Positions 2,592-33,595 of a DNA stretch of 64,000 nucleotides are shown piece by piece; the first letter of the stretch is position 1; every line of letters begins with the position of its first letter. The notes under the pieces were generated by a model that was not told where the DNA came from, made no database searches, and saw nothing but the letters and a program-made list of their open reading frames with translations. The translations under genes were made by a program, and so were the position numbers. Source of the DNA: Escherichia phage BEU50. Location of the stretch: sequence record OM632671.1. One strand, 5' to 3'.

Positions 2592-3080
2592 ATGAATATA
2601 TTTGAAATGCTTCGTAATGACGAAGGTCTTAGACTGACTTTATACAAAGACACCGAAGGCTTTTGGACGATTGGCATAGGCCATTTAGTAACAAAGAACC
2701 CGTCTTTAGCCGTAGCTAAAGCTGAACTTGACAGAATGATCGGACGTAAATGCAACGGTACAATTACCCTTGATGAGGCTGAAAAGCTATTTAATGAAGA
2801 CGTTGATAAAGCCGTTCGCGGAATCTTGGGTAATGCTAAACTTAAACCGGTATATGATTCTTTAGATGCGGTTCGTCGTTGTGCATTGGTCAATATGGTC
2901 TTCCAAATGGGTGTAGCAGGCGTCGCCGGTTTTACTAATTCTCTTCGTATGCTTCAACAGAAACGTTGGGATGAAGCGGCAGTAAATCTAGCCCAATCTA
3001 AATGGTATCGTCAGACACCTAATCGCGCGAAACGTGTAATCTCAACATTTAAAACAGGAACTTGGAAAGCGTATATATGA
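2592..3080 (+). CDS. e: lysozyme (endolysin)
   Basis: MNIFEMLR...GIGHL...[13 protein letters not shown] matches T4 lysozyme along its length; ORF-track start 2580 is GTG. Confidence 0.95.
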
Positions 3081-3358
3081 AAACATATAGTGAATTTTTA
3101 TCAGAATCTATTCTTAACGAAGCTACTGACACATTTGCAACTAAGCTAGGTGCAGCTTTGGTTGAAGCTGAAAGTCTATTAGCACGTATTTCTGAACTTG
3201 CTAGTAAGATAGATACTCGCAAATTTGAACGTACCAGCGATATCGCTAAGCTTGAAGCTTTGTTACGTATGTGCGATAAACCGGAAGAAATCGCTAAGAA
3301 CGGCTCGTTAATGAAACAACGTCTTGAAAAATATATTTCAGGCGCTTCAGAAAAATAG
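3077..3358 (+). CDS. internal-protein-like protein with capsid targeting sequence
   Basis: N-terminus [10 protein letters not shown] resembles T4 IP targeting sequence MKTYQEFIAE; ATG overlaps e stop (ATGA). Confidence 0.55.
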
Positions 3359-3359
3359 T

Positions 3360-3412
3360 GTTTACTTCCTCCAAGGACTTTGATACTATACATTCATCAA
3401 CTACTTGGAGGA
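3360..3412 (+). promoter_or_regulatory. early promoter inside inverted repeat (upstream of denV)
   Basis: GTTTAC 3360-3365; arms TCCTCCAAG (3367-3375) and CTTGGAGGA (3404-3412), distal arm is the SD. Confidence 0.5.
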
Positions 3413-3416
3413 AATT

Positions 3417-3830
3417 ATGACTCGTATCAATTTAACACTTGTTTCTGAACTGACTGACCAACATCTTATGGCTGAGTATCGTGAATTACCACGCGTATTT
3501 GGTGCAGTCCGTAAACATGTTCAAAACGGTAAACGTGTAAAGGATTTTAAAATCTCTCCAACATTTATCTTAGGCACAGGTCACGTAACATTCTTTTACG
3601 ACAAACTCGAATTTTTACGTTTACGTCAAATCGAGCTAATCGCTGAATGTTTGAAACGTGGTTTCAAAATCAAGGACACGACAGTCCAGGATATTTCCGA
3701 CATCCCTGCCGAATTTCGTAATAATTATGTCCCGTCCGAAGCGTCCATTGCGATAAGTCAAGCACGCTTAGATGAAAAAATTGCTCAACGTCCGACTTGG
3801 TACAAATACTATGGTAAATCAATTTACTAA
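3417..3830 (+). CDS. denV: endonuclease V, pyrimidine-dimer DNA glycosylase
   Basis: [12 protein letters not shown]...[11 protein letters not shown] matches T4 DenV; ORF-track start 3405 is TTG. Confidence 0.95.
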
Positions 3831-3836
3831 GGAAAA

Positions 3837-4097
3837 ATGAAAATGTATCAAGAATTTATCATTGAAGCAGATGCCAAAGGTCCTAAATTTAAAGTTAAAG
3901 CTTTCATTGGTGATGCGGAAGACTTTGGCTCATTAAAACGTAATGGGTATTCTTTCTTAGGTGGCGATGGTAAAGAAATCAACACCTATGCAAAACGTAG
4001 TGAAATTGCTTATGTTGTAGCAAGTCCTAAAGTAGATGTTGACGATATTGGATATGATTTTAACAACTTCGGAATTATTTCTGGCGGTAAAGCTTAA
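3837..4097 (+). CDS. internal-protein-like protein with capsid targeting sequence
   Basis: N-terminus MKMYQEFIIE. Confidence 0.6.
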   Translation: MKMYQEFIIEADAKGPKFKVKAFIGDAEDFGSLKRNGYSFLGGDGKEINTYAKRSEIAYVVASPKVDVDDIGYDFNNFGIISGGKA

Positions 4098-4100
4098 ATT

Positions 4101-4130
4101 GTTTACGCTTAAGTATTAATATGGTATAAT
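4101..4130 (+). promoter_or_regulatory. early promoter
   Basis: GTTTAC 4101-4106, TATAAT 4125-4130. Confidence 0.5.
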
Positions 4131-4160
4131 TACTCTATCAAAACAAACAAGGAAACAAAA

Positions 4161-4475
4161 ATGAAAACGTATAAAGAATTTATTGCAGAATCCGCCAACC
4201 AACGCGTTGAAGGTGGTTATATTTGGATTGAACAAGTTGAGCCACCGAGCCGCACTTCTACAGGTAAATGGAAAATTACTGTTGACGGTCCTGGTGGTAA
4301 ACGTAGGACTCTTAAAGAAATTAATGGGTACTATGAAGAAGCTCTTTCGGATGCAGGAACTTACATGATGCAAATCATGATTAAAAACCCTGAAAACCGT
4401 TTTGCAGCTAAAGTCTTCCGTCGTATTGGTAATAAACTTTATGATGCATACTCTAAAAACTTCCCTAAAGAATAA
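4161..4475 (+). CDS. internal-protein-like protein with capsid targeting sequence
   Basis: N-terminus MKTYKEFIAE. Confidence 0.65.
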   Translation: MKTYKEFIAESANQRVEGGYIWIEQVEPPSRTSTGKWKITVDGPGGKRRTLKEINGYYEEALSDAGTYMMQIMIKNPENRFAAKVFRRIGNKLYDAYSKNFPKE

Positions 4476-4500
4476 CATAAATTAAAACAATAGGAACAAA

Positions 4501-4830
4501 ATGAAAACATATCAGGAGTTTATCACTGAAGTTACATTATCTGCGGAACAGAAAGCTGCTATCGAAGAAGGTAAAAATCCCAAAGTAACATACAAAGTAA
4601 ATAGTAAAGGCGTTTTTGATGGCTTGGTTCAAGACCCTGAATTGAAAAAAGCTCTTTCTAAAACTAATGCGTACTTTGCTCCTAAATTTAACACAGCCGG
4701 TGTACTTATTGGATTGGATGTATTCAACTCTAAAGGTGTTCTATCTAATGCCTTTGGTTATGCCGCTAACAAAATTACCAAAGCCGCATGGGAATCCAAT
4801 ACCAAACAAGCTCAAAAGCCTAGAGTATAA
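4501..4830 (+). CDS. internal-protein-like protein with capsid targeting sequence
   Basis: N-terminus MKTYQEFITE. Confidence 0.65.
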   Translation: MKTYQEFITEVTLSAEQKAAIEEGKNPKVTYKVNSKGVFDGLVQDPELKKALSKTNAYFAPKFNTAGVLIGLDVFNSKGVLSNAFGYAANKITKAAWESNTKQAQKPRV

Positions 4831-11409: not shown

Positions 11410-11886
11410 ATGATTATCAATGAAAACTCTTGGCACTTTAAAATTTATGCCGCGTTCAATAGTACATGGAATCGTCCGAAAACGTTATGTGCTTATTTTT
11501 GGAAAACGTTTCTCCCGGTATTGGCTGCTTCAATTATTGGATTTGCGATTTTAGCAGCAGTCACAATCATTGGCCAGGAAATTTTAACTAAATTCTTTGT
11601 TTTTAGCAGTCTATGGACATTAGTTCTGGCTTCAATTGGTGTAGGCATTTTAATGGTAGCAGTCATGGCTTTTATTGCTACCGGGTTGGTAATTGGTCCG
11701 TCTTGGTTGTTAGACAAATATAACGACAGAAAATATTATAAAGAAATTGAGCTCATTGCACAAAACCAAGAACGAATTAAAAATGGACTTGAGCCTATTG
11801 AACGTAAGAAATCGATTATCGTTGAATTTTTAAAAGCTCGTAAAGCTAAAGTGTGTCCTACTCTTGAATACAAGCCAGGCAAATGA
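11410..11886 (+). CDS. hypothetical membrane protein (158 aa)
   Basis: Two hydrophobic helices. Confidence 0.5.
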   Translation: MIINENSWHFKIYAAFNSTWNRPKTLCAYFWKTFLPVLAASIIGFAILAAVTIIGQEILTKFFVFSSLWTLVLASIGVGILMVAVMAFIATGLVIGPSWLLDKYNDRKYYKEIELIAQNQERIKNGLEPIERKKSIIVEFLKARKAKVCPTLEYKPGK

Positions 11887-12665
11887 ATTATATCAAATGT
11901 TATGATGCAATAATTCAACGAGGAAAACTTAGAGGCAGTGATAAGTCTGAGTTGAATTATTATACTGAATCCCATCACATAATCCCTTCATGTATTGGAG
12001 GGAGTGATGACCCGAGTAATAAAGTTTTATTGACTGCCAGGGAACATTTTATCGCTCATTGGTTATTATCAAAAATTCACCCAAACTCTGAAGGATTGAT
12101 TTACGCTTACTGGGCGTTCTATAATTTAGGCGAAGATGCTTTAGGACGAAATCTTAAATTAACCTCAAGAGGCTATAAAGACGTAAGGGAAAAGTTTTCA
12201 GAAATTCACTCTAATAGAATGAAAGATATATGGGAATCACAAGAATATCGTGATAAGCGTTCAGCGACCATGAGCCTCCCTGAGATAAAGGCTAAAATGT
12301 CAGATTCTCAAATAGAGGCACAGAATAGACCTGAAGTTAAAGCAAAAATATCTACTGCTATCAAAGAGGCCTTTAAGAGAGATGATGTTAAAGAACGGCA
12401 TTCAAGAGCTGTTAAAAAGGCCCTAGATAATCCAGAAACTAAAAAGAGACAGTCTGAAGCGTCTAAAGCTAGACAACGAACTGGTAAACACTGGGAAGAT
12501 TATGATATGCTTTACGAACTTTGGATTAAATTGAATCGACCTAAGCGTGGGGCTTTCGGAACCCATATTAGTAAAATGGGTTATCCTAAATCAAATTACC
12601 AACGCTTAATATTACAGTTCATTGAAGATTATGAAAGGAAAGTGAATAATGAAAACGATTGTTAA
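11883..12665 (+). CDS. HNH homing endonuclease
   Basis: MNY N-terminus; HHIIPSCIGGSDDPSNKVLLTAREH motif; C-terminal NUMOD-like repeats. Confidence 0.8.
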   Translation: MNYIKCYDAIIQRGKLRGSDKSELNYYTESHHIIPSCIGGSDDPSNKVLLTAREHFIAHWLLSKIHPNSEGLIYAYWAFYNLGEDALGRNLKLTSRGYKDVREKFSEIHSNRMKDIWESQEYRDKRSATMSLPEIKAKMSDSQIEAQNRPEVKAKISTAIKEAFKRDDVKERHSRAVKKALDNPETKKRQSEASKARQRTGKHWEDYDMLYELWIKLNRPKRGAFGTHISKMGYPKSNYQRLILQFIEDYERKVNNENDC

Positions 12666-20790: not shown

Positions 20791-21262
20791 ATGTTATTAT
20801 CAGGCAAAATATAAAGAAGAAAAACAAAAATTTTATGATGCACAGAATGGTAAGTGTCCTATTTGCCACCGTGAATTAGACCCTGATGTTCAAGGTAACC
20901 ATCTTGACCACGACCACGAATTAAACGGGCCAAAAGCCGGTAGAGTTCGTGGATTACTCTGTAATCTGTGCAACGCAGCAGAAGGTCAAATGAAGCATAA
21001 GTTCAACCGTTCCGGTCTTAAAGGACGTGATGTTGACTACCTCGAATGGCTTGAAGCTCTTCTTGCTTATTTGAAACAAGATTATTCTTATAATAATATC
21101 CATCCTAATTTTGTTCCAGACAAAACTAAAGAGTTCTCAAGACTAGGTAAAGAGGAAATGATGGCTGAGATGCTTCAAAGAGGATTTGAATATAATGAAT
21201 CTGACACCAAAACACAGTTAATAGCTTCATTTAAGAAGCAACTTAGAAAGAGTTTAAAATGA
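20791..21262 (+). pseudogene. 49: endonuclease VII (gene 49) homologue with disrupted 5' reading frame
   Basis: ATG 20791 gives MLLSGKI then TAA at 20812; the homologous frame (YKEEKQKFYDAQNGKC...HLDHDHELNG...) runs 20807..21262 with no ATG before 20990. Confidence 0.6.
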
Positions 21263-23076
21263 CAATTGAAAAAGAAATTGAAGGATTGATTCATAAAACT
21301 AATAAAGACCTTTTAAACGAGAATGCTAATAAAGATTCTCGTGTTTTTCCAACTCAACGGGACCTTATGGCTGGTATTGTGTCTAAACACATTGCCAAAA
21401 ATATGGTCCCGTCTTTTATTATGAAAGCGCATGAAAGCGGAATTATCCATTTCCACGATATTGATTATTCCCCTGCTCTTCCATTTACTAATTGCTGTTT
21501 AGTAGATTTAAAAGGAATGCTTGAGAACGGGTTTAAGCTCGGTAATGCACAGATTGAAACTCCTAAATCAATCGGTGTTGCTACTGCAATTATGGCACAA
21601 ATTACTGCACAAGTTGCTTCACACCAGTATGGCGGAACGACTTTTGCTAATGTAGATAAAGTACTTTCTCCTTATGTTAAACGCACCTATGCAAAACATA
21701 TTGAGGATGCAGAAAAATGGCAAATCGCTGATGCGTTGAATTATGCTCAATCCAAAACAGAAAAAGATGTCTATGACGCATTCCAAGCTTATGAATATGA
21801 AGTAAACACTCTCTTTAGTTCAAACGGACAAACGCCTTTTGTAACAATTACATTTGGTACGGGAACTGACTGGACTGAACGAATGATTCAGAAAGCAATT
21901 CTGAAAAATCGTATTAAAGGTCTTGGTCGTGATGGGATAACTCCTATTTTCCCTAAGCTTGTTATGTTCATTGAAGAAGGTGTTAATCTTTATAAAGACG
22001 ATCCGAACTATGATATTAAGCAGCTTGCGTTAGAATGTGCAAGCAAAAGAATGTATCCTGACATTATTTCGGTTAAGAATAATAAAGCTATTACCGGTTC
22101 ATCTGTTCCTGTTTCTCCAATGGGTTGCCGTAGTTTCTTGAGTGTATGGAAAGATTCAACCGGTAATGAAATTCTTGATGGTCGCAATAATCTTGGTGTT
22201 GTAACATTGAATCTTCCTCGCATCGCGTTAGATTCTTATATTGGAACGCAATTTAACGAACAGAAATTTGTTGAATTATTCAATGAACGAATGGATTTAT
22301 GTTTTGAAGCTTTGATGTGTAGAATTAGTTCCTTAAAAGGAGTTAAAGCGACTGTTGCTCCTATTCTTTACCAAGAAGGTGCATTCGGGGTTCGTCTTAA
22401 ACCTGATGACGATATAATTGAGTTATTTAAAAATGGTAGAAGTTCAGTGTCCCTAGGATACATTGGTATTCACGAATTGAATATTCTTGTCGGTCGTGAT
22501 ATTGGACAAGAAATTTTAACTAAAATGAATGCTCATCTTAAACAGTGGACTGAAAGAACTGGATTTGCTTTTAGTTTATATTCGACTCCTGCTGAAAACC
22601 TTTGTTATCGCTTCTGTAAACTTGATACAGAAAAATATGGAAGTGTAAAAGATGTTACCGATAAAGGCTGGTACACTAACAGTTTCCACGTTTCAGTAGA
22701 AGAAAATATTACTCCGTTTGAAAAGATTTCTCGTGAAGCGCCATATCATTTCATTGCGACAGGTGGTCACATTTCTTATGTTGAACTTCCTGATATGAAA
22801 AATAACTTAAAGGGTCTTGAGGCCGTATGGGATTATGCTGCACAACATTTAGATTATTTTGGTGTTAATATGCCAGTAGATAAATGTTTTACATGCGGAA
22901 GTACCCATGAAATGACTCCTACTGAAAACGGATTTGTTTGTTCTATTTGTGGAGAAACTGATCCTAAAAAGATGAATACCATAAGAAGAACATGCGGCTA
23001 TCTTGGAACTCCTAGCGTTGTTCCATGGAATTTAGGTAAAATGAAAGAAATGGTAAAACGAGTAAAACATGCATAG
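21259..23076 (+). CDS. nrdD: anaerobic ribonucleoside-triphosphate reductase
   Basis: 605 aa; C-terminal Zn-ribbon cysteines and glycyl-radical motif RRTCGYLG. Confidence 0.95.
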   Translation: MTIEKEIEGLIHKTNKDLLNENANKDSRVFPTQRDLMAGIVSKHIAKNMVPSFIMKAHESGIIHFHDIDYSPALPFTNCCLVDLKGMLENGFKLGNAQIETPKSIGVATAIMAQITAQVASHQYGGTTFANVDKVLSPYVKRTYAKHIEDAEKWQIADALNYAQSKTEKDVYDAFQAYEYEVNTLFSSNGQTPFVTITFGTGTDWTERMIQKAILKNRIKGLGRDGITPIFPKLVMFIEEGVNLYKDDPNYDIKQLALECASKRMYPDIISVKNNKAITGSSVPVSPMGCRSFLSVWKDSTGNEILDGRNNLGVVTLNLPRIALDSYIGTQFNEQKFVELFNERMDLCFEALMCRISSLKGVKATVAPILYQEGAFGVRLKPDDDIIELFKNGRSSVSLGYIGIHELNILVGRDIGQEILTKMNAHLKQWTERTGFAFSLYSTPAENLCYRFCKLDTEKYGSVKDVTDKGWYTNSFHVSVEENITPFEKISREAPYHFIATGGHISYVELPDMKNNLKGLEAVWDYAAQHLDYFGVNMPVDKCFTCGSTHEMTPTENGFVCSICGETDPKKMNTIRRTCGYLGTPSVVPWNLGKMKEMVKRVKHA

Positions 23077-23088
23077 GGTTAAACACCA

Positions 23089-23721
23089 ATGAATTATGAC
23101 AGAATCTATTCAAATCTAGTTAATTCTGCTGAACACCCATCTAAGCCCCGTCAAACTAAAGCCGGGTATGAACTTCATCATATAATTCCAAGAAGCATGG
23201 GTGGTCCAGATGATTTAGACAACTTAGTATTTTTAACTTATAAGGCCCACTATACTGCTCACCATTTATTGGCTAAAATATATGGTGGAAAGATGTATGA
23301 TGCATATTGGATAATGAGTAATAGTAAGCATAGAAAAGTTACTTCTTCACAATACGCGTATGCAAAAGCTAAGAAATTTGAAAATCAGCGTGGCGCAAAA
23401 AGAAGCGATAAAACTAAGAAGCTAATGAGCATAGCTAGGTCTAAAGTAACTCTTCCTGATGATTTTGGAAAAAGGATATCTGATGGGCTAACAGGAAGAA
23501 CTTTGTCTACTAGTCATAAAGAGCATATCAAAAATAGTTCTAGAAATCGCTTTAACACCAAAACGGTTATTGGCTATTCACCAGACGGAAATACAATAGA
23601 ACTAACTGGAGCAACTGAAATAAGAAATGCAGGATTTTTTCATTCTGCTGTTTATAAATGTTGCAAAGGAATTCAATCTATTCATAAGGGATATACTTGG
23701 AAATATAAAGATGAATTATGA
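23089..23721 (+). CDS. HNH homing endonuclease
   Basis: MNYDRIY N-terminus; HHIIPRSMGGPDDLDNLVFLTYKAH motif; lies between nrdD and nrdG. Confidence 0.8.
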   Translation: MNYDRIYSNLVNSAEHPSKPRQTKAGYELHHIIPRSMGGPDDLDNLVFLTYKAHYTAHHLLAKIYGGKMYDAYWIMSNSKHRKVTSSQYAYAKAKKFENQRGAKRSDKTKKLMSIARSKVTLPDDFGKRISDGLTGRTLSTSHKEHIKNSSRNRFNTKTVIGYSPDGNTIELTGATEIRNAGFFHSAVYKCCKGIQSIHKGYTWKYKDEL

Positions 23722-24181
23722 TAGAATATACCCGTGCTGCTTTGTTAATGGTCCTGGATGCAGGGTCGTTCTCTTCGTCACTGGATGTTTGCATAAATGC
23801 GAAGGTTGTTATAATCGTAGTACTTGGAATGCTCGTAACGGACAGTTATTCACTATGAATACCGTTAAAGAACTTGCGTCCCATTTAAGCAAATCGTATA
23901 TCCAAGGCCTTACCTTAACCGGTGGTGACCCACTTTATCCACAGAACCGAGAAGAGATTTCAAATTTAGTTTCTTGGGTTAAAGCAAGATTTCCGGAGAA
24001 AGATATCTGGTTGTGGACAGGATATAAGTTTGAAGATATTAAACAGCTAGAAATGCTTAAATATGTTGATGTTATTATTGATGGGAAGTATGAGAAAAAT
24101 CTTCCGACTAAAAAGCTGTGGCGAGGATCAGATAATCAGCGACTTTGGTCAAATACCGATGGGGTGTGGAAACATGATTAA
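23711..24181 (+). CDS. nrdG: anaerobic ribonucleotide reductase activating protein (radical SAM)
   Basis: MNYDRIYPCCFVNGPGCR and CLHKCEGC (CxxxCxxC); ORF-track start 23627 is an upstream extension. Confidence 0.9.
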   Translation: MNYDRIYPCCFVNGPGCRVVLFVTGCLHKCEGCYNRSTWNARNGQLFTMNTVKELASHLSKSYIQGLTLTGGDPLYPQNREEISNLVSWVKARFPEKDIWLWTGYKFEDIKQLEMLKYVDVIIDGKYEKNLPTKKLWRGSDNQRLWSNTDGVWKHD

Positions 24182-30156: not shown

Positions 30157-30327
30157 ATAGCAAACATTGATTATACCGAAGAAGATTCTAGATATGTTGG
30201 AATAATTTATATTACATCAAAAACAGCACAAGGCGTTGTTTGCATGGCTGAATTTGATGAATACTTTTTAGATTATGATGATATGATAGAATGGTCTAAA
30301 AGATACATTAAAAGGAATCTTTTGTGA
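30121..30327 (+). CDS. hypothetical protein (about 68 aa)
   Basis: GTG start with AAGGA SD; N-terminus duplicated at the start of the downstream HNH gene. Confidence 0.4.
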   Translation: MKFSTFDINDEFIANIDYTEEDSRYVGIIYITSKTAQGVVCMAEFDEYFLDYDDMIEWSKRYIKRNLL

Positions 30328-30358
30328 AGAATTTTAAACTTGATATTAATGACGAATT
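30312..30358 (+). repeat. diverged direct repeat, copy B, at the start of the HNH gene
   Basis: Collinear with 30108..30156. Confidence 0.5.
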
Positions 30359-31178
30359 TTTAATAAAGGAATTAGTTGAAAAATTAGTGTTGAGCGAAGA
30401 AGACGCCAAGTCTTACATTAATTTTATTTCTATGAATTCAACTGTTAAAACTCCGGGTAAAACGGAAGCACATCACGTGCTTCCTAAATCAATATTTCCT
30501 GAATATTTAAAATCTACATGGAATTTAGTTAATTTAAGTCATTTTAATCATTTCAAAGCACATTTCTTATTAGCAAAAGGTAAAAATGGAAAAATGCTAA
30601 ATGCTTTAAATAGAATGATGTCAGGAAAAACATATAAAAATTTATCTTTAGCCGAAGTTGATTTAATAGCTGCTGAATATAGTTTTATAAGACAAGATGT
30701 AAGTGACACAATATCAAAAAGGCTTCAACAATATTATTCAAATCCGCAAAATAGAAATGCTGCTAGAGAAAGGGCATTAAAATATTTTTCAGTAGCAAAA
30801 AATAGGAAAGATAACAAAGAAAGATTAAATAATTTTAAAACAAAACAAAAAATTTCAATGGCTTCAAGGGAATGGTTTAATAACGAAGAAAATAAAATTA
30901 AACACCAAAAGGCTGTTCGTGCTGCTTTATCAAAACCTGAATATAAAATAGCTATATCAAATTCAGTAGCTGCTAGTTGGAAAAATCCGGAGATTAGAAA
31001 AGCTCATATAGCATCTCGACGAAAAGGCTATCATTGGGATAATAAAGATAAATTGTATGAATTGTGGATATCATATAATCGTCCTAAACATGTGATGTTT
31101 AGGAAAATGTTAGTTAAGAATGGATATCCAATAGAGGCTTCATTACAGGCTTTAGTTAAAGAATTTTCTTCATTGTGA
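30324..31178 (+). CDS. HNH homing endonuclease inserted between genes 47 and 46
   Basis: GTG start; AHHVLPKSIFPEY...LVNLSHFNHFKAH motif; Lys-rich NUMOD-like C-terminus. Confidence 0.75.
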   Translation: MKNFKLDINDEFLIKELVEKLVLSEEDAKSYINFISMNSTVKTPGKTEAHHVLPKSIFPEYLKSTWNLVNLSHFNHFKAHFLLAKGKNGKMLNALNRMMSGKTYKNLSLAEVDLIAAEYSFIRQDVSDTISKRLQQYYSNPQNRNAARERALKYFSVAKNRKDNKERLNNFKTKQKISMASREWFNNEENKIKHQKAVRAALSKPEYKIAISNSVAASWKNPEIRKAHIASRRKGYHWDNKDKLYELWISYNRPKHVMFRKMLVKNGYPIEASLQALVKEFSSL

Positions 31179-31193
31179 ACAATTGGATACAAA

Positions 31194-32882
31194 ATGAAAT
31201 CATTTAAACTTAATAGAGTAAAATATAAAAATATAATGTCAGTTGGTCAAAATGGAGTTGACATTCAATTAGATAAAGTCCAAAAGACATTAATCACTGG
31301 TAAAAATGGCGGTGGTAAATCTACGATGTTAGAAGCCATCACTTTTGGACTTTTCGGCAAACCATTTCGTGATGTTAAGAAAGGACAAATCATTAATAGC
31401 ACGAACAAGAAAGAGCTCTTAGTTGAGCTTTGGATGGAATTCGATGATAAAAAATACTTCATTAGACGTGGCCAAAAGCCCAATATTTTCGAAATCTCCG
31501 TTGACGGTGTTCGTCTTGATGAATCTGCCAGCAGTCGTGACTTCCAAGAAGAATTTGAACGTAGCATCGGAATGTCATACGCGTCTTTTAAACAAATCGT
31601 TGTGCTTGGGACGGCAGGGTATACCCCTTTCATGGCTCTTAGCACCCCTGCTCGTAGAAAACTTGTCGAAGACCTTTTAGAAGTCGGCACACTCGCTGAA
31701 ATGGATAAAATCAATAAGTCTCAAGTTCGAGAACTTAATTCCCAGGGACAAGTTCTCGATGCCAAGAAAGATGGTGTTATCCAACAAATTAAGATTTATA
31801 ACGAGAATATCGAACGTCAAAAGAAATTATCTGGTGATAATGTAGCGCGTCTACAGAATATGTATGACGACCTAGCCAAAGAAGCTCGTTCATTAAAAGC
31901 AGAAATCGAAGAAGCTAATGAGCGACTACTTAATATCGTTCTTGATGAAGACCCTACTGAGGCATTCAACAAGATCGGACAAGAAGCATTCTTGATTAAA
32001 TCTAAAATTGACTCATATAACAAAGTTATTAAGATGTATCATGATGGTGGTACATGTCCTACTTGTGCATCACAGTTGCACCAGGGTGATCCTATTGTCT
32101 CTAAGATTACCGATAAGCTTCACGAATGTAATCACTCATTCGAGCAACTTACATGTCACAGAGATAATCTGAGTGTCCTAGTGGACGAATATAGAGCTAA
32201 TGTTAAGACTAAACAGGACCTTGCATCTGATATTCGTACCAAGAAACAAGCAATGATTGCCACTATTGATAAAGCTAAGAAAGTTAAAGCTGCAATAGAA
32301 CAAGCCTCGGCGGAATTTATCGACCATGCCGATGAGATAGCTTTGCTTCAAAAAGAACTTGATAAAATCATTAAAACAAAATCGGATATCGTTCTTGAAA
32401 AATACCATCGCGGTATTATCACAGATATGTTAAAAGATTCTGGTATTAAAGGTGCTATCATTAAAAAATATGTGCCTCTGTTCAACAAGCAGATTAACCA
32501 TTATCTTAAAATCATGGAAGCTGATTATGTGTTTTCTATTGACGAAGAATTCAATGAATCTATAAAATCACGTGGACGTGAAGAATTCAGTTATGCTTCG
32601 TTTAGTCAAGGTGAAAAGGCACGTATCGATATCGCATTGTTGTTTACATGGCGAGATATCGCTGAAAAGGTCTCTGGCGTTAGAATCAATACATTAATTA
32701 TGGACGAAGTCATGGATTCCGCGACTGATTCTGAAGGTATTAAAGCTATTTCAACAATTCTTAACTCTCTAACCGATGCAAACGTGTTTATAATTAGTCA
32801 CAGAGACCATGACCCACAAGCTTATGGACAACATCTTCAAATGAGCAAAGTTGGACGATTTACTGTAATGAAAGCCTCTTAA
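31194..32882 (+). CDS. 46: recombination ATPase gp46 (Rad50-like)
   Basis: Walker A GKNGGGKST, CPTC zinc hook, long coiled coil, C-terminal signature region. Confidence 0.95.
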   Translation: MKSFKLNRVKYKNIMSVGQNGVDIQLDKVQKTLITGKNGGGKSTMLEAITFGLFGKPFRDVKKGQIINSTNKKELLVELWMEFDDKKYFIRRGQKPNIFEISVDGVRLDESASSRDFQEEFERSIGMSYASFKQIVVLGTAGYTPFMALSTPARRKLVEDLLEVGTLAEMDKINKSQVRELNSQGQVLDAKKDGVIQQIKIYNENIERQKKLSGDNVARLQNMYDDLAKEARSLKAEIEEANERLLNIVLDEDPTEAFNKIGQEAFLIKSKIDSYNKVIKMYHDGGTCPTCASQLHQGDPIVSKITDKLHECNHSFEQLTCHRDNLSVLVDEYRANVKTKQDLASDIRTKKQAMIATIDKAKKVKAAIEQASAEFIDHADEIALLQKELDKIIKTKSDIVLEKYHRGIITDMLKDSGIKGAIIKKYVPLFNKQINHYLKIMEADYVFSIDEEFNESIKSRGREEFSYASFSQGEKARIDIALLFTWRDIAEKVSGVRINTLIMDEVMDSATDSEGIKAISTILNSLTDANVFIISHRDHDPQAYGQHLQMSKVGRFTVMKAS

Positions 32883-33595
32883 TGAGGCTTATATTTACAA
32901 TTATCGAAATGCCAACGATGCATATTAGCAGGGATCCCTATTTTATCGCAATGAGGACATTTAATTTTCTTGTCCTCTTTTTTCTTTCTGTTAGGATTTG
33001 ATTTACAGAATTTTATATGTGGCTTTAACGCCGATAACTTAGTAGTTAAGCCACAAAACGGGCAAGAATCTTCTTTCCAAATTTTCGTGGCCATGGTTTT
33101 AATTATTTTATCTTTTGTTTCTTGATCAAGTTTTACTATTTTAGGCGTTGGACCTTGTTTACAATTATCAAAATGCCAACGTCGCATGTTTCCTTCAGTT
33201 CCAGTTAAACCACAATGTGGACAGGTAATCTTTGGTTTATTTTTTGCAGACTCGGACATTTTCTTACGGGTTTCAGCAGTGAATTCTTTATTCTTTTGAA
33301 CTTCTTGATTCTTACGTCGAAGCCATCCAAATAATTTGTTTTTGCTTCTATCTGCTTTAGGAGATGATATGGTCATCATACGAGCGGCATATATTAAAGA
33401 GGCATTATCTGGATGGATTTTTACCAACAGTTGATGTGCCAAATAATGTTCTTCCGGTGTTAAGTCTACTAAGTTTAAAGCATCATCACTTCCACCTAAA
33501 CATTGTGGTATAATGTGATGACGTTCTGTATAACCATCTAAACTTCTTGATTTAGCATTGGTGATAAGCTTTTCGTATATTGAGTTATAATTCAT
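32879..33595 (-). CDS. HNH homing endonuclease (minus strand)
   Basis: MNYNSIY N-terminus; HHIIPQCLGGSDDALNLVDLTPEEH; C-terminal CPxCG zinc-finger repeats. Confidence 0.8.
   Translation of the reverse strand: MNYNSIYEKLITNAKSRSLDGYTERHHIIPQCLGGSDDALNLVDLTPEEHYLAHQLLVKIHPDNASLIYAARMMTISSPKADRSKNKLFGWLRRKNQEVQKNKEFTAETRKKMSESAKNKPKITCPHCGLTGTEGNMRRWHFDNCKQGPTPKIVKLDQETKDKIIKTMATKIWKEDSCPFCGLTTKLSALKPHIKFCKSNPNRKKKEDKKIKCPHCDKIGIPANMHRWHFDNCKYKPH

Follow-up and report, generated by a model that had tools for sequence, protein, structure and literature searches.

The nrdD–nrdG junction of Escherichia phage BEU50

The DNA analyzed here, a stretch of 64,000 nucleotides (nt) from Escherichia phage BEU50 (sequence record OM632671.1; in the following the window), belongs to a T4-like phage (Tequatrovirus) and carries between the anaerobic ribonucleotide reductase genes nrdD and nrdG a gene for an HNH endonuclease which begins with the same seven codons as nrdG. 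This region of the window is 99.6% identical to Escherichia phage vB_Eco_BCPEco_001 and 96.4% identical to T4. The gene order at the locus is gene 49, nrdD (21259–23076, plus strand), the HNH open reading frame (ORF) mobC (23089–23721, plus strand), and nrdG (23711–24181, plus strand). The nrdD gene codes for the large subunit of the reductase with 605 amino acids (aa; Pfam NRDD, E=1e-171, and Gly_radical), and nrdG for the activating enzyme with 156 aa (Pfam Fer4_12, E=2e-50, and Radical_SAM).

The HNH gene encodes 210 aa and lies between nrdD and nrdG in the same orientation as mobC does in T4, as judged from the ORFs of the window and the T4 annotation. It shares 630 of its 633 nt with the T4 gene, and in a tblastn comparison residues 8–210 of the protein are 99% identical to T4. 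MobC matches the Pfam HNH family PF01844 (26.8 bits at a cut-off of 21.4; residues 28–50, ELHHIIPRSMGG...DNLV) as well as phrog_655, "homing endonuclease" (E=2e-42). The gene is a separate ORF embedded neither in an intron nor in an intein, and both flanking genes, nrdD and nrdG, are complete. By similarity and position it is the ortholog of the free-standing HNH homing endonuclease gene mobC of phage T4 and as such an already known gene. In T4 the locus, the start of MobC, and the overlap with nrdG are the same as in the window. There are, however, three differences. The nrdD stop overlaps the mobC ATG in T4 and is found 12 nt upstream of it in the window, because the nrdD 3′ end of the window is of the segH-allele type (see below). 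The first ~50 nt of nrdG in the window are a variant coding for PCCF. Finally, nrdD of the window is uninterrupted and without intron, whereas nrdD of T4 consists of two joined pieces with a group I intron and I-TevII.

The first-pass annotation had described that the HNH ORF and nrdG both start with MNYDRIY, and this description holds. The first seven codons of mobC (ATGAATTATGACAGAATCTAT, 23089–23109, plus strand; the mobC start is written as ATGAATTATGAC) and of nrdG (ATGAATTATGATAGAATATAC, 23711–23731, plus strand) form two copies of a repeat which agree in 18 of 21 nt, and all three mismatches are synonymous third positions. The two copies lie 622 nt apart (formerly given as 620 nt), and the HNH gene, for which the end had been placed at 23730, stops at 23721. 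Its stop codon TGA (23719–23721) is built from codons 3–4 of nrdG. The last three mobC codons and the stop are read from the second copy of the repeat in another frame, and the overlap of both genes amounts to 11 nt. When up to three mismatches are allowed the 21-mer occurs only at these two sites in 64 kb, with 0.01 expected by chance. It was also correctly remarked before that other HNH genes of the window begin with MNY and then diverge, namely MNYIKCY at 11883 (plus strand) and MNYNSIY at 33595 (minus strand).

Alleles of the junction and the mosaic structure of nrdG

The comparative work rests on GenBank phage records. Of 837 phage records matching the locus 31 carry mobC, and the other records examined are empty or contain segH (T6, RB3) or a 279-aa HNH-like gene, here called HNH279. 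This patchy occurrence at one locus, like the co-conversion tract described below, is in keeping with a free-standing homing endonuclease gene. The comparison of the nrdD–nrdG junctions across relatives, which had been suggested as a check, placed the mobC ATG at the ancestral ATG of nrdG, with a mobC start that follows the local nrdG. In detail, the empty alleles of RB68 and GiZh read catagggttaaacaccaATGAATTACGATAGATTTTATCCC, and the nrdD stop overlaps the nrdG ATG; nrdD ends with ...catagggttaaacaccaATGA and this ATG is the start of nrdG (ATGAATTACGATAGATTTTATCCC). The upstream context of nrdG in endonuclease-free alleles (catagggttaaacacca) precedes the mobC ATG in T4, HP3, G2540-3, and the window. 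Thus, mobC occupies the ancestral start of nrdG, and the nrdG start has been re-created 622 nt downstream. We refer to this layout, in which an endonuclease ORF starts with the first codons of the following host gene, as start capture; for mobC both the upstream context and the codons match the endonuclease-free allele.

In Klebsiella phages an extra small ORF is found between nrdD and nrdG, so that the region preceding nrdG bears no relation to its counterpart in the T-evens. The empty nrdG of such a phage (K65_evo9) starts with ATGAATTTCGACAGAATCTAC, in a longer read ATGAATTTCGACAGAATCTACCCT (MNFDRIYP). The mobC gene of the Klebsiella phage Shark_ER15 starts with ATGAATTTCGACAGAATCTAT (MNFDRIY), in a longer read ATGAATTTCGACAGAATCTATTCAAAT (MNFDRIYSN), and its first 20 nt are all identical (20/20) to this local-type empty nrdG. 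The nrdG downstream of it has the T4-like start ATGAATTATGATAGAATATATCC. Among 133 representatives of the MobC family (see below) none has F at position 3 and two have D at position 4. Given the identity to the local nrdG and the absence of F3 from the family, the first codons of mobC in Shark_ER15 are those of the local nrdG.

The nucleotide identities along the locus delimit the block that the genera have in common. The mobC gene of the window is 99.5% identical to that of T4 and 98.6% to that of Shark_ER15. Over the nrdD 3′ flank T4 is 98–99% identical to empty T-evens and 78% to K65, and Shark_ER15 is 96% identical to K65; the flank is thus lineage-specific. On the other side of mobC, nt 61–100 of nrdG are 100% identical between the window, T4, and Shark_ER15. 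For nt 101–300 the window shares 99.5% with T4, 95% with K65, and 54–57% with RB68, GiZh, RB3, and Ozark. For nt 301–471 the values are 98–99% with the T-evens and 71% with K65. As codons 34–100 of NrdG are generally variable between genera (58–67%), the 95% match to the Klebsiella type points to a transferred tract, which makes the nrdG gene of T4 a chimera.

We read this tract, nt 61–300 of nrdG (23771–24010, plus strand), which is common only to mobC-bearing and Klebsiella (Jiaodavirus-type) phages, as the right-hand co-conversion tract of mobC. From these boundaries the genera have in common a unit which starts at about codon 4 of mobC and extends ~300 nt into nrdG, so that co-conversion would have occurred on the right only, with the left junction inside the shared 21 nt and the second copy of the repeat carried along with the mobile block. 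In T4 mobC, nt 1–9 (ATGAATTAT) are of the T-even nrdG type and nt 10–20 (GACAGAATCTA) are identical to Klebsiella-type nrdG. This fits a scenario in which mobC originated on a Klebsiella-type nrdG and underwent a crossover within its first ~10 nt when entering the T-evens. We also considered whether the empty "I"-variant alleles (L012 and L034, MNYDRIYPCDF) are precise excisions of mobC and rejected this, as codons 34–100 of their nrdG are of the ordinary T-even type.

Start capture is not restricted to mobC. HNH279 is only distantly related to MobC (32% identity over 100 aa) and occupies the nrdG site in 32 records, of which 22 come from Escherichia/Shigella/Yersinia/Salmonella phages and 10 from Klebsiella phages. 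In Ozark the gene starts with MNYDRFYPCDFVN followed by DKLAL, and its first 39 nt (13 codons) are identical to the empty nrdG of E. coli phages. In the Klebsiella phages Roth04 and KP01 it starts with MNFDRIYPSDFVN followed by DKLSS, and here the identity is to the empty nrdG of Klebsiella phages. A complete nrdG with a recoded start (MNYDRIYPCCFVNG, PCCF type) follows downstream in each case. Since no internal methionine precedes the HNH motif of HNH279, the captured start is needed. The target gene is the same as for mobC, as is the layout, which is even clearer here, and the ORF likewise ends with ...WKYINEL* inside codons 3–4 of nrdG. In contrast to mobC the captured codons are not fused in register with the N-terminus of the family, and a linker of ~15 residues comes after them. 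The gene named mobC in Yersinia phage PST is in fact HNH279 and not MobC.

The second example lies in the window itself at another host gene. HNH284, a gene for a 284-aa HNH-like homing endonuclease with a GTG start (30324–31178, plus strand; phrog_655, E=3e-45), is 36% identical to HNH279. It starts with GTGAAGAATTTTAAACTT and continues with GATATT, and the GTG and first six codons (VKNFKL, 30324–30341) are the own start of gene 46: T4, which is without HNH284, has an identical sequence over the 45 nt upstream and then reads GTGAAGAATTTTAAACTT followed by AATAGAGTA, which is the annotated GTG start of its gene 46. In the window gene 46 (31194–32882, plus strand) restarts with ATGAAATCATTTAAACTT followed by AATAGAGTA; the first six codons are recoded (31194–31211, MKSFKL) and the sequence is then identical to T4. 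The recoded start MKSFKL resembles the Mosigvirus start. HNH284 is present in 71 records, including T2 and T6, and relatives at 45% identity are found upstream of gene 46 with N-termini of their own in phages F2 and Melville. The codons captured beyond the family N-terminus thus comprise 13 codons in HNH279, six codons and the GTG in HNH284, and F3 and D4 in mobC of Klebsiella phages. On this reading the borrowed start together with a recoded duplicate is realized in three endonuclease genes and two host genes. Orthologs of mobC or HNH279 were not found in IMG/VR or metagenome contigs, where the matches were limited to weak relatives or to the first 13 residues, which derive from nrdG.

As a control 7,021 ORF pairs of the window were scored over residues 2–7. 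No pair reached six of six identities, and the pair of HNH284 and gene 46 has four of six; the mobC–nrdG pair is not in this table, because nrdG was called automatically from an ATG further upstream. The only pairs with five of six are tandem paralogs at 3077–4501. These ORFs (3077, 3837, 4161, and 4501, plus strand) constitute a small paralog family starting with MKTYxEFI or MKMYQEFI.

Explanations of the shared start and the proposed mechanism

We consider it probable that the two MNYDRIY stretches mark the left and the right end of the mobC insertion, and that they combine a microhomology based on the family consensus with a real recombination at the nrdG start. The first-pass annotation had offered recombination or a convergence that aids homing. 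The former part is supported by the allele comparison, namely by the position of mobC at the ancestral nrdG ATG, the Klebsiella start that follows the local nrdG, and the left edge of the block inside the repeat, and in addition by the two unrelated HNH genes with captured start codons of their host genes. For a convergence selected to aid homing we see no direct support; the two copies in the window show no excess DNA identity.

How much of the match is owed to the HNH family itself has to be considered, as the protein family is a fairer null than random DNA and on this null most of the residue-level match is expected. A word-indexed protein search with MobC gave only seven distant matches and missed T4 itself; the family statistics therefore use an exhaustive representative search, which gave 12,897 relatives. 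The statistics cover the best 150 representatives and the seven earlier matches, of which 133 are in register from residue 1. The N-terminal consensus of these is M-N-Y-[QEK]-[KR]-I-Y-[DN]-x-L-I, and the residues of MobC occur with the frequencies N2 99/133, Y3 111/133, D4 2/133, R5 44/133, I6 83/133, and Y7 130/133. It had been stated beforehand that a family N-terminus reading MNYDRIY generally would make the match coincidental. This is nearly the case, as six of the seven residues agree with MNY[QEK][KR]IY, with the exception of D4, the only one of the seven in the mobC start of the window to depart from the consensus.

Several points speak against a recombination at the nrdG start. Six of the seven residues of MNYDRIY are family consensus and D4 alone is unusual. 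At least six of seven residues are shared with MNYDRIY by 24 of the 133 representatives and all seven by one, a family member (P0074) which starts exactly with MNYDRIY although it is sited between baseplate genes, away from nrdG. By a count on the sequence, the repeat copies of the window differ at three of five variable synonymous sites. In a 2010 review MobC appears among the free-standing endonucleases with its activity entered as "ND" and its target as unknown. Finally, the direction of transfer, from Klebsiella-type phages to T-evens or the reverse, is deduced from allele frequencies, and whichever the direction, a crossover in the repeat would yield a mobC start of the Shark type.

It could thus be argued that two conserved N-termini coincide and that mobC, keeping its native start, entered exactly behind the nrdD stop and ahead of the nrdG ATG without capturing anything. 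Apart from the family consensus with its 24 near matches and one unrelated exact match, this explanation can draw on the NrdG side of the match, as the MNYDRIY of NrdG is old and owes nothing to an endonuclease gene: in endonuclease-free T4-like phages NrdG starts with x-[YF]-D-R-[IF]-Y down to ~55% protein identity. In addition, the third-position differences between the window copies are at chance level, and identical peptides together with the phage codon usage would by themselves account for their DNA identity. A recent gene conversion between the two copies is not supported, as three of the variable synonymous sites differ.

The genes for MobC relatives at 44–46% identity, encoded in Slopekvirus KP27, Pseudotevenvirus leB, and a metagenomic contig, immediately precede nrdG, have different upstream spacers, and keep the native starts MNYHKIY or MNYQKIY. 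That such MobC-like genes, as in Slopekvirus, keep native starts at this site is compatible with an insertion without capture. The same genes suggest an ancestral MobC start without D4-R5, and together with the xYDRIY of NrdG in phages without endonuclease this makes D4-R5 a trait of nrdG rather than of MobC. A mere coincidence is already strained by the Klebsiella allele, in which mobC starts with MNF and matches the local nrdG in 20 of 20 nt even though F3 is absent from the family and D4 occurs in 1.5%. It also leaves unexplained that the left edge of the block common between the genera is inside the repeat and that two unrelated HNH genes carry 13 and six host codons, beyond any family consensus. 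We therefore regard coincidence as unlikely.

Alternatively, selection might keep the two copies similar, either as a favorable translation start region for both genes or as a left homology arm for homing. Indeed the repeat acted as the left crossover point between genera with unrelated sequence upstream of nrdG, and mobC takes over the coupled start of nrdG behind nrdD, with the nrdG ATG 10 nt before the mobC stop. On the contrary, the two copies in the window agree at synonymous sites no more often than expected, and the downstream copies at HNH279 and HNH284 are recoded (14 of 18 nt for gene 46), where selection for identity would have produced the opposite. Within the T-evens the long nrdD homology makes an arm of 21 nt unnecessary. 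Selection for similarity is in our opinion improbable.

Least credible of all is a transposon-like target-site duplication from a staggered cut at insertion. Direct target repeats do flank a discrete insertion of 622 bp. The upstream copy, however, is of the recipient type and the downstream copy of the donor type and recoded, running into a donor tract of 300 nt; the length of the repeat varies with the element (21, 39, and 18 nt); and neither a transposase nor terminal inverted repeats are present, the gene coding for an HNH homing endonuclease. A duplication of the transposon type was rejected because the two copies differ and have different lineage origins.

Returning to recombination at the nrdG start, we suggest two layers. 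The first would be a pre-existing microhomology: the native MNY-x-[KR]-IY of the HNH family and the MNYDR[IF]Y of the T4-type NrdG form an in-register stretch of ~20 nt. The second would be crossovers inside this stretch, by which mobC takes the first codons of whichever nrdG received it. The upstream copy at the old start of nrdG would be reused as the start of mobC, which inherits the position of nrdG behind nrdD, and the downstream copy would move with mobC and give back an intact nrdG, so that the mobC ORF begins and ends in 5′ sequence of nrdG. For the transfer between genera without homology to the left of nrdG, we infer that a break in nrdG is repaired from one side only. The right end of the break would invade the donor nrdG, and synthesis would copy back through the 5′ end of the donor nrdG and mobC. 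The left end, still with the first nrdG codons of the recipient, would then be joined to mobC by microhomology. A recipient-type upstream copy, a donor-type downstream copy, donor tracts on the right only, and in-frame fusions would all fit such a one-ended repair, which in turn predicts a cut by MobC close to the 5′ end of nrdG in endonuclease-free phages, no more than a few tens of bp into the gene. The insertion would interrupt or recode the native target sequence. The captured start would also hand the start signals of the host gene to the endonuclease, in T4 an ATGA overlap with nrdD, and the nrdG ATG 10 nt before the mobC stop is a plausible arrangement for translational coupling.

A broader proposal, which we put forward only tentatively, is that HNH homing genes of T4-like phages repeatedly cross genera by one-ended homing with the left end joined in frame, for which a captured start and a recoded duplicate would be the signature. 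If this is true, the signature marks the cleavage sites of uncharacterized endonucleases, that is codons 3–13 of nrdG for MobC and about codon 6 of gene 46 for HNH284, and a single step would provide an endonuclease gene with both expression signals and immunity.

Comparison with known systems and further features of the window

A GIY-YIG homing endonuclease, SegH (Sandegren et al. 2005), reportedly replaces mobC in T6/RB3-type phages. It uses the same nrdD–nrdG junction, and the segH ORF overlaps the nrdD end and the nrdG ATG. In contrast to MobC, SegH belongs to another nuclease family and starts with MHRYYIIYKITN, with the GIY-YIG motif at the N-terminus; a capture of nrdG codons by segH was not seen. 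Free-standing endonuclease genes inside host genes are also said to be MobA in the T4 genes 39/60 and MobE, which splits nrdA in Aeromonas phage Aeh1 (Friedrich 2007; Crona 2011). Like at mobC, the function of the host gene survives there by sequence that was brought in or rearranged. On the contrary, the host gene remains as two polypeptides in these systems, whereas at mobC the duplicated 5′ end makes it whole and the endonuclease gene reuses the displaced start. Homing endonucleases of introns and inteins likewise reside at or near their target in a conserved gene, interrupt their recognition sequence, and show co-conversion. They depend on splicing, however, while mobC manages without RNA or protein splicing and the integrity of the host gene comes from the duplicated first codons.

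Hence mobC, segH, homing with co-conversion, and insertions that split a host gene are known. As far as the accessible literature shows, the start-capture layout is new: neither the shared start nor duplicated recoded 5′ ends are described in the accessible literature on mobC, and nothing relevant was found on target-site duplication at free-standing endonucleases. It counts against this novelty that Sandegren et al. (2005) may already describe the junctions. The layout suggests a general route for the entry of free-standing homing genes into coding regions by which the host gene may survive, and the same route may let them cross phage genera without homology on one flank. MobC has been annotated in T4 for decades, and the analysis of its junctions now gives a specific and testable prediction for its cleavage. 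Moreover, the nrdG gene of T4 itself would owe its first ~300 nt, together with mobC, to a lineage resembling Klebsiella phages. If the layout holds up, target sites could be read from the genome sequence alone and the annotation of the locus, for which several records have wrong starts or names, could be improved.

The window differs from T4 on both sides of mobC by sequences of the segH type. The 3′ end of nrdD (22995–23077, plus strand) is a variant encoding ...GTPSVVPWNLGKMKEMVKRVKHA* and identical to that of the segH-bearing RB3; in the alignment T4, HP3, G2540-3, Ozark, RB68, and GiZh have the other version. A microhomology of 10 nt (CATGCATAGG, 23068–23077, plus strand) joins this segH-type nrdD end to the T4-type sequence preceding mobC. 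At this junction, which leaves 16 extra nt relative to T4, RB3 reads ...aaaacATGCATAGGtatt (the segH start codon) and T4 reads ...aatcATGCATAGGgttaag. A relic mini-ORF (ATGCATAGGGTTAAACACCAATGA, MHRVKHQ*, 23069–23092, plus strand) overlaps with its TGA the mobC ATG. The same 24 nt are the last nrdD codons in T4 and in the empty alleles, and by this identity the relic is the displaced nrdD end of the T4/empty type.

To the right of mobC a patch of nrdG from about nt 18 to 51 (23728–23761, plus strand), with PCCF for PCDF, matches the nrdG linked to segH and HNH279 and not that of T4; over nt 1–60 the nrdG of the window has an identity of 93% with RB3 and Ozark and of 83% with T4. With this patch and the tract described above, nrdG of the window is by our comparison a mosaic of three origins. 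As segH-type flanks are found on both sides of mobC, segH probably preceded mobC in this lineage and was displaced by it. The change from GAT to TGC (PCDF to PCCF) recurs in the nrdG genes that accompany segH, HNH279, or, in Klebsiella phages, mobC. The PCCF variant may protect against a competing endonuclease at the nrdG locus.

Some records of segH-bearing phages have unusual annotations at the locus. In RB3 (L002, 1870–2700) "segD" is annotated from an internal ATG and loses the GIY-YIG motif; the full segH ORF starts with ATGCATAGG and overlaps the nrdD stop. The nrdG gene of RB3 (2697–3167) is annotated 26 codons short. In the segH-bearing phage CHD94UKE2 (L047, 1797–2323) nrdG is annotated in three pieces, the first of which is out of frame after ~20 codons; this is either a pseudogene or a sequencing error.

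Two more HNH genes were noticed in the window. The gene at 32879–33595, just after gene 46, encodes 238 aa (MNYNSIY...) with repeated CPHC...RWHFDNC motifs resembling zinc ribbons, and it is located on the minus strand, opposite to all its neighbors; in the 2010 review this orientation is exceptional among T4 endonuclease genes. The gene at 11883–12665 encodes 260 aa (MNYIKCY...) and overlaps the stop of the upstream ORF by ATGA and the downstream ORF of 328 aa by 17 nt. It has no codons in common with its neighbors and may be mobD-like.

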